A DNA stretch of 62,270 nucleotides, filler included, from Hausera hauseri (taxonomy: Eukaryota): assembly GCA_046269625.1 (NCBI GenBank). It is 11 parts of 11 records of this genome, joined end to end, with 100 filler letters (N's around TTAATTAATTAA, not from the genome) between each part and the next. Parts side by side here need not be neighbours in the genome. Positions count along the whole stretch, not along the records: positions 20,450 to 30,878 come from JBJURY010188860.1; 10 more parts are not named here. One strand, 5' to 3'. Below the pieces are notes generated by a model. It was not told where the DNA came from. It saw only the letters and a list, made by a program, of their open reading frames with translations, and searched no databases. Made by a program: the position numbers and the translations under genes. This document shows positions 20,450 through 30,878 of this stretch, in pieces (the stretch's first letter is position 1; every line of letters begins with the position of its first letter).

Positions 20450-20785
20450 AATTGCAACATTTGAACGGCCGTGGTGGGGTTCCGCGAACAAGAGCCGGAC
20501 GCCAAGTTTTGTAATTTTTTGTAAATGCGTGTTTTAATGTCACGATAACTGAGAATGAAAAGTTGAAGTTTTTTAATACGTTCCAAGTAAACTTTAGATG
20601 TTGAAAAAGTTTTTTGTATTTACGGATTTCTCCAAAAAGATTAAAATATGTGACATGTTACGGGTTGTAATGAATTATAGAAAACCCATGCTACAAAATG
20701 ACAATGATATTTGGTTGGTGCATTGGAATGTAACGGATGGTATTTCCGTGCACCAACAAAACACGGTTATCAGTTTTGATTTTAT
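20450..20785 (+). repeat. Copy 1 of a ~340-bp direct repeat with a conserved hairpin (20714-20757)
   Basis: Shares AATTGC.ACATTTGA.CGGCCGTG...GACGCCAAGTTTTGTAA...TTTTAATGTCACGATAAC and GTTGGTGCA-N26-TGCACCAAC with 30293-30637. Confidence 0.85.
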
Positions 20786-21187
20786 AACCCTGATATTTCA
20801 TATAAAAGGTGCTATCGAGAACGCTGATATACAAACCAAAAGCTACAATTTTGGTGTCAGATACTAGGCAATACAAAGTCCGTCGAAAATGCTGTGATTT
20901 ATCAAACTTTAAATTACGAAGTATCACCGATGATTTCTTGGGATTTTTGCATATTTCGAATCTGGAACAATACGGTGAGTCTTGCTTTTGTTTGCGGGAT
21001 TCCCTACGGTAAGTTTTTATGTCGCAATTTACTTGTTGGGTTGATTTTGTTACTGTCTGTTGACCTACCATGTTATATATTGCTTAATGTAACTCTATAT
21101 GGAGATGTGCCAAGTAAAATTCAGTTCATATTTAAACATTTTCAGTTTACTCGTAATTTTTGTCAATTTTACCTTTTCATAAATTAA

Positions 21188-21862
21188 ATGGGTATCCATC
21201 AACTTAGTAAAGTTACTTTTGATGCGTCTATGTGCATTTATCAGTTTCTCATAGCTCTTAGACAAGATAGTAGTGTATTACGGAATGATGAAAAAGAGAC
21301 AACAAGCCATTTAATGGATATGTTTTATCGTACATTAAGGACGGTTGACAATGGAATAAAACCAGTCTACGTATTCGACGGTAAACCGCCAGTTTTGAAG
21401 TCTGACGAATTAATTAAATGGTCTGATAGACGAGAAGAAACTGAAAAGTTGTTGGGACAGGCATGTAACAAAGATAACACCAAATACATTAAATATTTTG
21501 GAAGCGGTTAGTTAAAGTTTTACCACAGCATAATGAAGATTGTAAGTAATTGCTGAATCTTATGGGGATTCCTTACATTAGTGCTCTTTGCAAAGCCGAA
21601 ATCCAATTTTCTGCACTTGTAAAAGCTGGTAAAGCATTTGGGATTAGTACCGAAAATATGGACGCGATAACATTTGGTGGAACAGTTTTGCTGCGTAAAT
21701 TGACAGTCAGTGAAACTTAAAAAAATGCCCATCCAAGAATATCATCTGGATAAAGTCCTGTCTCAGATGGAATTAACTATGGATCAATTTATTGATCCTT
21801 GCATTTTACTCGGCCGCGATTACTGTCCCTTAGTTCACGGGATCGGTCCTAAGAAATCAATA
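21188..21862 (+). pseudogene. FEN1: Flap endonuclease 1 fragment (internal deletion, frameshifts, 3'-truncated)
   Basis: MGI..L...[12 protein letters not shown]...ETTSHL.MFYRT...[49 protein letters not shown]...GIGPKK. Confidence 0.93.
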
Positions 21863-22654
21863 GAAAACAGACTATTGGAAGCGAATAATAAAAATGTTAA
21901 GGATAGTCGTCGGCTAGAAATGGACATACAAAGGTTGATTGCATCTCCAGCCCAAAGGTGCTGTCAACCTGCGTGTTCTACATGTGAAGATTACGTGCAG
22001 CGTAACCCAACTCTACAGTAAAAGAGAGCATGCAAGCGATATTATCATTTGGCTTCCGTCAAACAGGAAATTTTAACTGTATCAGATGCTGTCAGGTATT
22101 GCAAGGATTGCGTGGCGAACAACTACCAATATATCTGGTGCAAAAATGTATATGATCGTAAGGTAATAATTCAGTGTGAAATGACTGGTTGTGGTAAATT
22201 GTATCACAGGCGGTGTTTACATACTATCGATTACTCGCAAGTCGTAATTCGGAACAATAAATTACGGGCATGTCCTGACCATTACTGTTTGACTTGCGTC
22301 CGTGAAGATCCCATGAAAACCAAAATACCCGATAATCTTAGTGAGTGCATTAAATGTCCATTTTTGTTTCACAACACCGAATATGGTATGGTTGTCGGCC
22401 CTATAGAGTTGTCTTATTCCCAGTTTATTTGTTCCCGACACTTCTTGGAAACACTACCCAAGACCGACTCTAACAAAACCTGTCATCCGCCTTGGTATTT
22501 TAGATGTTTTAAACAAAGTCCAAAGATATGTAGTGCCACATGTCTGACAGCACTTGACGAGGAGCGTTTAAAAGCGAGATCTAAAGTGCCACATATCGGT
22601 AACAAAAGTTTTATCTGTGACAATTGTAAACGGCAATCTGAAGAGACACTTTAG
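21863..22654 (+). pseudogene. NSD/MES-4-type histone methyltransferase tandem PHD-finger fragment, fused in frame to FEN1
   Basis: CEMTGCGKLYHRRC...CPDHYCLTC...CIKCPFLFH...ICSRHF...W.F.C...ICDNC matches the NSD PHD cluster. Confidence 0.8.
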
Positions 22655-22764
22655 AAAATCATGACCATATACTCCGCATCAAATCACCAGAATTCCACAG
22701 ATGATATACAATTACTTTCTAACGATCAACCTTATTTTCGAGCATTGAAAATATTCTAACTGCT

Positions 22765-23400
22765 ATGACCAAAAATATAACAAATGGTAAAAACATTGAT
22801 AAATTTCCATTCAAGGAATTTGATACGTCTGTAACAAACGATGGGCAATTAGTTGCTAATCCTTTCGGTCCAGGAGCAATATTGGGAGCTGGGGTTACTT
22901 CGGATAGTTCGGGAATGTTTCGTGTGCATAATCTAAATTTAAACTGTGTGATCCAGTCGAGTTATTCTTTGAGTAACAATGTGTATTACGAAATTTTATT
23001 TTTCAACGACAAAACAACGTTTTATATTCTGGAACCAGTGTCGTTTGGTTTGTCCAGAAAAAAAATTTCATCGGAATGCTTCATTCTATACAATTTTGTT
23101 AATCTATCAAGTCCTAGTCTAGTCATTAACAAGGGTAAGATAACATGCAATAATCGATTCAGTTATCAGTTAGCACTATCTCTTAAGAAGTTGAAGACAC
23201 AAATGTCTGTTGGATTGTATTTTTATGATAATAGTTGCTTGGAGATTTTCGTTAATAAAATTAGTGTCGGACAAGTCGTATTAGAATTTAACCAAAATAG
23301 TTATATGTTGGTAAATCTCAGAAGTTGGTATAATACGTTTTTGGTTGAAGAAATATCACCGAAACCCCCGGTTTATTGTAGTCAGGCTCTGTTAAGATGT
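22765..23400 (+). pseudogene. Neuralized (NHR)/SPRY-like beta-domain fragment
   Basis: VIQSSYSLSNNVYYEI...SFGLS...LKKLKTQMSVGL...LEIFVN..SVG...YMLVNL resembles the NHR pattern. Confidence 0.4.
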
Positions 23401-23894
23401 GCATTACCTAAATGGCAGCTTGATATGGTACCATTTGACGGTGATAATTCTACTCAAATTGTGCGATTACATTGTAATTCTGATAATTTACAACAACCGG
23501 ATAACGCACACTACCTGTTGCTGGAATCAACTACATTACGCCCATCCGTTAACATAAATTCCAATCGCATATGTTACCAATGGAACCGAATGTCGACCCA
23601 TCATCAAGAGTCAATGACGGATATCGTAACATGAAGTCGTTCAACGCCAACGTCGACGACTTGTCCATCATGCCCATTTGTATGGCATTCGGTGACCAGA
23701 CAGTCATTATTTCCATGTGCGTTACCAAGGACGACAAAATTGGCGGGAAGCTCGATCATTTGTTCAAGAACGGTCCGACGGATGACCTTTACGGATTCCC
23801 CACGAACCAGATGGCCGTGAATATCATTCAGGCTTACGAATTGCCAGTGGTGACATCGGATAATAATCGACGGCAGAAACAGAATTTGACACCG

Positions 23895-29411: not shown

Positions 29412-29529
29412 GTTATTTCAGTTGATAATTATATCTACAGCGACTTTGACGTATTTGATAAAGTTTATTGGTCGAGCATCTGGCACATACGGAATGGAGA
29501 ATTTTAGATTTACGATTCTTTTCGATTGC

Positions 29530-30094
29530 TCAATAAATTTGTCTTGAAACTGCAAGTGCAAAAAATCCAAATATTACGTTCCACACGACCACAGCAGCAC
29601 CAACAAAAGTAAAGCAAAGTCGTGAATGGAGATATCGAAAACTCATAAATGGGGCAGAACACCAATAGAGCATTTCCATAAGAAAAACAGGAAGAAACGT
29701 CTGTTTAGTGTATTCATAGTCCGACTTGAAATTCCAATTTCTATCTGACGATTCATTAACAAATAAATATGCGACAATAATTGGTGGAGAAATAAGCATC
29801 TGGTCCATAATTACTTTGGTTATAACTGCATGTCGGCCTTTTACAAGATTAGTGTCTGCAAGCCAATGTCTAAGAAAAACCATAACAACCCGACTTTAAA
29901 TCGATATGGTTTTCATTTTGTAATTTCGTGTTATGCAGAGTCAATTTGTAAAATTTATCACGGTGGTGAGCAATGGAGATATATCTAAAATTGAATTGTA
30001 CGGGAATGATCAATTCGTTAACAAGAAGTATATCGGAAGCAAAATTATAATTATTCATTGAATTGTTATATAATAGTACGTTTATGCAATCCAC
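29530..30094 (-). pseudogene. Mpv17/PMP22-family membrane protein, decayed
   Basis: TKVIMDQMLISPP...FLPVF....LYW......F.YL..RL..V....VVWN. Confidence 0.8.
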
Positions 30095-30292
30095 CGTAAC
30101 GAATCAATAATTGGGCTGTAGAGAATATTAGGCAAATTTATTTTATTGTCATGTGATGAATCTATGTACAGATTTTCTTCTTTTAAAAGAACAATTGTTA
30201 GTTCGTGATTGTTGAGAACATGGGATCCCGTGAATTTGTTATTTAAACAAATTAACATTTAAATCTGATAGTAACTTGGTCAAAGTGAATTG

Positions 30293-30637
30293 AATTGCGA
30301 CATTTGAGCGGCCGTGTGGGATTTCGCGAGCAGAAGCCAGACGCCAAGTTTTGTAAATGTTTTTGTATATATAGTTTTTGTTTTAATGTCACGATAACGA
30401 CGGACAAAATTTTAACGGTTACTTTGAAAGGTTTTAATAAAATTTTTAACTAGTTGTACCGGGTTTTCTTTTTAAAAATTTATTGTTTCCCAAGACTGTA
30501 AACGCAGATCATTAATTCCAAAGAATTATAAAAGTTCCGGATTATCTATATACCAAGTTACGTTGTTGGTGCAGAAAAATTCATACGTTGATATTTTGAT
30601 GCACCAACAAAGCCTGGTTAAGACTTGATTATTTTAA
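30293..30637 (+). repeat. Copy 2 of the ~340-bp direct repeat (hairpin 30563-30610)
   Basis: Shares the same blocks as copy 1; the hairpin arms are separated by the same 26 nt. Confidence 0.85.
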
Positions 30638-30689
30638 TGATTTAAATTGCCTAAGATACTGAATGTACGGTAAAGAAACGATTTACATA

Positions 30690-30878
30690 GGCAACAGCAT
30701 CCATGTGCTGAGCCAATTGAGAAAAATCCTCATACATGTCCTCCGTCTTGATCTGATAGATAAAACTATCAGTGTCCATATAGATCAGCTGTATGGACTT
30801 AAATGTTGGTACCATTATATCATAATGGAAGTCGTACATTAGGGTTTTTGATAGGTCCAATATTGCCATACCCACATA
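30690..30878 (-). mobile_element. Second Polinton-type PolB fragment (motif C region), from a different family than the first
   Basis: YVGMAILDLSKTLMYDFHY...LIYMDTDSFIYQIKTEDMYED. Confidence 0.88.

Follow-up and report, generated by a model that had tools for sequence, protein, structure and literature searches.

A chain of broken host-gene pieces in the 5' LTR place of a Gypsy element of Hausera hauseri: a candidate multi-gene chimeric retrocopy

Five co-oriented broken coding pieces precede a Gypsy leader

The window analysed here is a stretch of 62,270 nucleotides, filler included, from Hausera hauseri (assembly GCA_046269625.1), in which 11 unrelated contigs are joined by artificial linkers (N44-TTAATTAATTAA-N44). 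The feature under study is one entire contig of 10,429 bases (JBJURY010188860.1, positions 20450-30878 of the window), where five broken coding pieces, all on the plus strand, are joined end to end upstream of the leader of a Gypsy retrotransposon. Three of the five are firmly identified, as FEN1, the PHD fingers of an NSD-family protein and DPAGT1, each free of intron-sized insertions and each carrying stops or frameshifts. The chain is a genuine joining of partial sequences from at least two unrelated host genes. A preliminary description of this DNA had reported such a chain of host fragments on the plus strand; its FEN1, NSD, DPAGT1 and GC-richer pieces were found again, but the neuralized-like identity that it gave to one piece was not upheld, with Atlas feature scores of only 0.82-0.83.

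The chain opens with a dead FEN1 piece (21188-21865, plus strand) that covers codons 1-248 with the start codon and is recognized by Pfam (XPG_N 8e-20, XPG_I 7e-12). Frame-aware alignment with three full-length FEN1 proteins gave 0 inserted codons over codons 1-248, and 143 of 247 columns were identical to the reference P0074. It has lost 22 codons in one deletion, shifts frame near 21500 and again near 21721, and has a stop at 21549. The AT-rich stretch between the end of an upstream repeat and the ATG (21094-21187, plus strand) is, from its position, possibly the FEN1 5' untranslated region. A protein search with this piece returned animal FEN1s, the top scores at 56-76% identity, and the parental FEN1 was not among the matches; judged from these relatives, the source organism is an animal. 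The reading frame in which FEN1 ends continues into an NSD-family PHD-finger piece (21866-22654, plus strand), matched by Pfam PHD_NSD (1e-5, domain at 22022-22654) and by NSD3 (1.4e-8, 139 aligned residues with small gaps only), with a stop at 22019.

The next piece (22768-23570, plus strand, right border approximate) is coding DNA with an open, beta-rich frame and an ATG of its own. Likeness to SPRY/Neuralized proteins is a weak lead here, since the scores to those clusters stay under 0.9, the value from which the Atlas feature score counts. No match to this SPRY-like piece was obtained in Pfam, PDB, a near-length protein search or PHROGs, and its fold model (predicted local distance difference test, pLDDT, 31) was unusable. 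The sole HMMER match was to a repeat protein of bacterial type, hit 11 times, and was rejected as spurious. Between this piece and DPAGT1, and in frame with the latter, lies a coding-like piece of 105 codons (23574-23888, plus strand) that stands out by codon use: G or C occupies the third codon position (GC3) in 65 of 105 codons (0.62), against 290 of 809 (0.36) in the neighbouring pieces (p 4e-7), which bears out the GC-richer segment described before. Repeated searches gave no relatives of it. An Atlas assignment to DPAGT1 (0.83) is probably carry-over from the fused frame, as the PDB alignment does not cover the piece, and a match to enterovirus VP3 (E 0.17) was treated as chance. The GC3 of this piece is closer to that of polymerase frames elsewhere in the window (7405-8821, 0.43-0.53) than to that of the host pieces.

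The last piece is DPAGT1 (23889-24422, plus strand; human residues 182-362, 3.8e-30), which has only 1- and 3-residue gaps across 181 residues and a stop at 24312, and extends further than had been noticed. The similarity ends on the Met codon at 24420-24422; the human DPAGT1 residues that come after this point are normally conserved. The ATG overlaps by 2 nt a TGG at 24421, the only TGG in 24300-24517, which stands about 375 bases ahead of the probable gag start. Its position makes this TGG the likely start of the Gypsy primer-binding site (24421-24438, plus strand), with no tail of a long terminal repeat (LTR) in front of it. Changes in GC skew (24568 here, 52049 and 37643 in two other contigs) were not fine enough to locate the start of the element.

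Two of the four chain joins are in frame, FEN1 to NSD and the GC-richer piece to DPAGT1, as had been claimed; the chance expectation for this outcome is 41%, however, and the FEN1 lesions lie upstream. Because of these lesions (two frameshifts and a stop), no fusion protein is readable across FEN1. Exon shuffling into a working protein is not demonstrated either, as the FEN1, NSD and DPAGT1 pieces all bear stops or frameshifts.

The Gypsy element keeps a broken interior and has no recognizable LTR body

Behind the likely primer site lie the Gypsy leader and a broken gag-pol with many stops and frameshifts (24439-29200, plus strand). From about 24800 onward, Pfam recognizes DUF7041 (gag), RVT_1, RNase H and the integrase zinc finger in Gypsy order, and the body is 64% alike to a Gypsy at 40491-42455 of the window. 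We take Gypsy/Ty3 elements with a DUF7041 gag to be the CsRn1-like lineage. A motif behind the integrase consists of a polypurine tract (PPT; a G-run at 29385-29393) and an LTR head (TGTGGTAC, 29397-29404), both on the plus strand. Two further Gypsy copies in the window have this tract and head at the corresponding place behind the integrase (at 43415 and 49467); as the pattern was derived from these same copies, its position and not its count is the evidence. Behind the PPT of one Gypsy copy, an open frame of 136 codons without Pfam match (43423-43833) begins at the LTR head and runs on the element's strand. At neither Gypsy end in the contig was a recognizable LTR body found, and there was no LTR pair: comparison of the 5' slot (21030-24421) with the 3' slot (29397-30237) scored no better than shuffles (19 of 60 and 40 of 60 as good).

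The 3' slot holds a decayed copy of a Mpv17/PMP22-family gene in antisense to the Gypsy (29464-29895, minus strand). Its Pfam match (29530-29895, E 1e-4, 22.7 bits) lies below the curated cut-off of 27, and a PDB search with the copy came back empty. The copy has a stop at 29530 and an AATAAA at 29469-29464, so that its 3' end lies about 60 bases behind the LTR head, and a frameshifted front part may extend to about 30200. A scrap of a family-B DNA polymerase (PolB; 30697-30878, minus strand; weak Pfam DNA_pol_B match, E 0.04), presumably Polinton-like, runs off the contig. All three features that the preliminary description had placed downstream of the chain, Gypsy, Mpv17 and PolB, were thus found by Pfam, the last two as weak matches on the minus strand.

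The flanking repeats are copies of a dispersed fold-back family

Only one sequencing run was found to share sequence with the window (X1, of unknown kind, 44% of words), and no RNA run was among the runs listed. X1 covers 30 of 30 bins of the contig. Some diverged X1 contigs match the SPRY-like piece (22931-23347) with 50 differences and DPAGT1 (24064-24311) with 47; other copies of these two pieces therefore exist. Among the 8 of about 11,000 X1 pieces listed, none bridges a chain junction. The summed contig depth is about 40 at FEN1, 140-470 onward, 840 at DPAGT1 and at least 5000 at gag-pol, with about 300 at copy 1 of the repeat described below and about 50 at Mpv17; such a gradient would be compatible with stepwise capture, but since depth of this kind neither equals copy number nor allows the parts to be ranked, it was not used as evidence.

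Both ends of the contig carry a fold-back repeat that resembles a miniature inverted-repeat transposable element (MITE): it is short and non-coding, has terminal inverted repeats and occurs in several copies. Copy 1 (20450-21093), whose left end is cut by the contig start, was recognized by self-complementarity. Its inverted arms (20450-20512 and 20967-21029) are complementary at 43 of 62 positions, a score above 300 of 300 shuffles, and a central hairpin lies at about 20711-20760. The stretch folds with z -3.24, which none of 20 shuffles equalled, and comparison with copy 2 carries the right arm to 21093. Copy 2 (30238-30696), recognized by its similarity to copy 1, is cut off at 30696, and the two are identical at 228 of 356 positions (64%). 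In Rfam the repeat matched no family at the curated score, the one match (E 0.89) being far under the cut-off.

At 30696, where copy 2 borders on the PolB scrap, one X1 contig passes on to 20851, inside the later portion of copy 1, and other X1 contigs mix both copies. Because X1 contigs join and mix the copies in this way, the repeat represents a dispersed fold-back family of about 650 bp, of which copy 1 is near complete and copy 2 truncated, and the two appear to be separate insertions. The repeat of about 340 bp that had been reported near both ends is therefore present, but as a self-complementary element and not as a pair of element ends. That the repeats delimit a capturing element finds no support, given that copy 1 holds both of its own termini, that the copies are only 64% alike and that X1 joins 30696 to 20851. 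Each repeat copy immediately precedes the 5' end of a gene copy oriented away from it (21093/21188 for FEN1 on the plus strand, 30238/30200 for Mpv17 on the minus strand), a position that may reflect an insertion preference or a promoter role.

A second contig has a similar layout

In another contig of the window (49329-53630, minus strand), an RPS14 copy, two coding-like scraps, a TGG, a Gypsy leader and gag follow each other in one orientation (52960-51855). The RPS14 copy is intronless, has its ATG and matches Pfam at 6e-44, and the scraps run up to the TGG near 51860. The longer scrap has no Pfam match, and neither scrap matches elsewhere in the window. This contig likely holds a second chain in the 5' LTR position.

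The adjoining Gypsy reverse transcriptase may have built the chain by template switching

Based on the layout of the contig, we propose that the reverse transcriptase of the neighbouring Gypsy produced the chain, a multi-gene chimeric retrocopy that is now dead and occupies the 5' LTR place of this element, and we regard this as moderately probable. The preliminary description had offered DNA capture or template switching on RNA, with the latter favoured by the co-orientation, and had listed the Gypsy as a bystander. The RNA route is the best-supported reading: the pieces share one orientation, none of the three that could be aligned has an intron-sized insertion, and the chain meets the Gypsy at its likely primer site. 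The Gypsy is most likely the agent itself. All five pieces of the 5' slot (5/5) lie in sense with the Gypsy, Mpv17 in the 3' slot is antisense, and FEN1, the piece most distant from the Gypsy, retains its ATG. Across FEN1, NSD and DPAGT1, about 1700 nt were aligned without an intron-sized insertion, which supports an RNA origin indirectly. For the flatworm Gyrodactylus salaris, PMC4040987 describes four exons per 906 nt, which is about one intron per 300 nt. Our own estimate, which assumes a similar organism and even spacing, suggests a chance of about 0.003 that some 1700 nt would be free of introns.

Under this proposal, minus-strand synthesis would leave the Gypsy RNA at the primer site, either just after priming by transfer RNA (tRNA) or at a degraded template end, and this exit would replace the normal strand transfer. 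Synthesis would then continue on co-packaged mRNAs, on each toward its 5' end, so that DPAGT1, the GC-richer piece, the SPRY-like piece, NSD and FEN1 would have been copied in this order, FEN1 as far as its start codon and leader. Several rounds of replication may have contributed to the chain. The antisense Mpv17, which would have been entered near its poly(A) signal behind the LTR head, could be a mirror event in plus-strand synthesis or the result of a later deletion. After an exit from the primer site onto mRNA, one would expect intron-free sense pieces piled up toward the left, the last of them extending to its own 5' end, and no trace of U5, and it is because the layout matches these expectations that we give the proposal this degree of confidence.

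Several observations weigh against it. In the account of normal reverse transcription in PMC6894440, synthesis starts at the primer site and two transfers yield two identical LTRs, an expectation from which the contig departs, as its 5' and 3' slots differ and Mpv17 is antisense. No LTR head was found at the left end of the chain, and the single 8-mer that resembles one, further in at 23424, is no more than chance would give. The absent left head, the unlike 3' slot and the antisense Mpv17 are left unexplained, and template switching at the primer site does not account for the integration of DNA that lacks a normal LTR tail. The window has no tRNA genes and so offers no tRNA match for the TGG at 24421, and the leaders of its three Gypsy copies aligned no better than shuffles, being too diverged for their TGG sites to be matched up. 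The GC-richer piece, whose codon use is unlike that of the host genes, may be a mobile-element scrap, and the 22-codon deletion in FEN1 shows plain deletions at work in this contig. Moreover, a frameshifted intronless copy of CWC27 (48250-49228, minus strand; PDB 8e-8) has no Gypsy beside it; this indicates that such copies are common in the genome, in which case some would be expected to neighbour a Gypsy by chance.

Alternative origins of the chain

In a different explanation, which the deletion in FEN1 supports, the contig is junk formed at the DNA level: a region with duplications or many repeats, in a genome poor in introns or rich in pseudogenes, was compacted by deletions, and the pieces, the Gypsy body and Mpv17 were thereby brought together. 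The absence of both LTR bodies, the cutting of repeat copy 2 by the PolB scrap and the further decayed intronless copies in the window agree with it. Four or five deletions would be needed, however, all of them preserving orientation and leaving no intergenic DNA, one would have to end exactly at the likely primer site, and the layout recurs in the contig with RPS14; we therefore consider this origin unlikely, though it deserves serious attention. An RNA-derived chimera might also have formed elsewhere, through a long interspersed element (LINE) or another LTR element, and have been joined to the Gypsy later by deletion or recombination. This would agree with published chimeras, which according to PMC5131818 replace internal open reading frames (ORFs) between two LTRs, and with a third contig (35581-38400) whose arrangement of a primer-site-like start, 2.4 kb of broken coding-like DNA and a Gypsy fits nested or tandem elements. 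Around the chain there was no sign of an upstream LTR, of a primer site or of a poly(A) tail, and the junction falls on the TGG itself, which makes an origin elsewhere improbable, though it too should be kept in view. In that third contig, the primer-site-like TGGTGTCAGAAG at 35598, which we take to be of the tRNA-Leu type, precedes the coding-like DNA (about 2.4 kb, no Pfam match) and the Gypsy follows it; host sequence may here form the interior of an element.

Helitrons are characterized by a Rep-helicase gene, TC...CTRR ends and a 3' hairpin. Uptake of the pieces as DNA, by a Pack-TIR, a composite MITE transposon or a Helitron bounded by the flanking repeats, would be in keeping with the inverted-terminus character of both repeats and their place just upstream of the FEN1 and Mpv17 5' ends. 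Pack-TIRs do exist in animals, as PMC8277862 reports, but their cargo is given there with a median of 224 bp. In this contig, both termini of copy 1 fall within 650 bp, so that the cargo lies outside them and a simple Pack-TIR is ruled out, the repeat copies are only 64% alike, the cargo shows no intron-sized insertions, and no transposase or Rep-helicase was detected by Pfam in the 24 frames scanned (Helitron ends were not searched for). The Helitron or Pack-type capture that had been suggested is very unlikely on these grounds. An assembly or amplification chimera, finally, might be suspected because the contig is short and unplaced, begins within a repeat and has junctions that no X1 contig bridges among the 8 of about 11,000 pieces listed. 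X1 nevertheless covers all 30 of its 30 bins, and the pieces carry old damage (stops, frameshifts and changes at conserved residues) that is unexpected in a fresh chimera of working genes; an artefact is accordingly extremely improbable.

Beyond the single copy, template switching by the Gypsy can be extended to a more daring and rather doubtful idea, a Gypsy family without fixed LTR bodies that keeps its primer site and short LTR head and refills its ends from host mRNAs at each round. Sense pieces would then be stacked leftward from the primer site, and antisense pieces would be entered from the 3' end, behind the PPT. If such a family existed, it would be a standing machine for genome-wide mRNA sampling and exon shuffling, and the order of its cargo would record the order of capture.

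Other features of the window

The remaining contigs hold several features of their own. A frame of 1013 codons (474-3515, minus strand) contains seven cysteine-rich repeats of 57 residues in a 171-bp tandem array, and a RING-finger frame (11520-11927, minus strand; Pfam 5e-8) lies downstream of a Gypsy pol remnant in the contig at 10894-16022. From their motifs, we take 5711-10793 to be Polinton-like remnants of polymerase B, about 5713-6198 to be a dUTPase-like frame, and 44930-45756, on the contig with CWC27, to be a remnant of a mariner-type transposase.

Comparison with known systems

In its gag, protease, reverse transcriptase, RNase H and integrase order, its PPT and its LTR head starting with TG, the element resembles other Gypsy/Ty3 elements with a DUF7041 gag, from which it differs in having no recognizable LTR body at either end. 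Pack-TIR and Pack-MULE elements (PMC8277862) likewise have host fragments near elements with terminal inverted repeats; here, in contrast, the cargo, of 3.3 kb where the median there is 224 bp, lies outside the inverted termini and has no intron-sized insertions. Cassandra retrotransposons carry host-derived, 5S ribosomal DNA-like sequence in the LTR position, but according to the preprint (10.1101/2023.07.14.548913) this is one fixed and conserved RNA-gene segment within matched LTR pairs of non-autonomous plant elements, whereas the contig has a variable mosaic of protein-coding scraps and no LTR pair.

The closest parallel is given by Tan et al. 2016 (PMC5131818), who describe LTR-mediated multi-gene chimeras of metazoans formed by template switching, with up to four genes plus Alu and including the mouse 'Super', and cite maize Bs1 as an LTR-mediated case. 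As in this contig, partial mRNA pieces of unrelated genes stand there without spacers beside LTR-retrotransposon sequence. In those chimeras, however, the cargo replaces internal ORFs, both LTRs are kept and microsimilarity at the joints is key, whereas here gag-pol is kept, the cargo lies outside the core from primer site to PPT, there is no LTR pair and element sequence is found only downstream. Titles and abstract openings, outside subscription journals and supplements, mentioned no host-mRNA mosaics that replace the LTR at the primer site, which is weak evidence of novelty.

As a single dead copy without a new protein, the chain would have the value of one more, unusually long example. If a kept interior with host mRNA pieces at the primer site were found family-wide, it would point to switching at another step, and the integration of DNA that lacks a normal LTR end would call for an explanation; the chain predicts that the junction base at the primer site is fixed and that capture ran from right to left. 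Template-switch chimeras as such are known, and what appears to be new in this one is its position, with the interior kept, the cargo outside and the LTRs gone.

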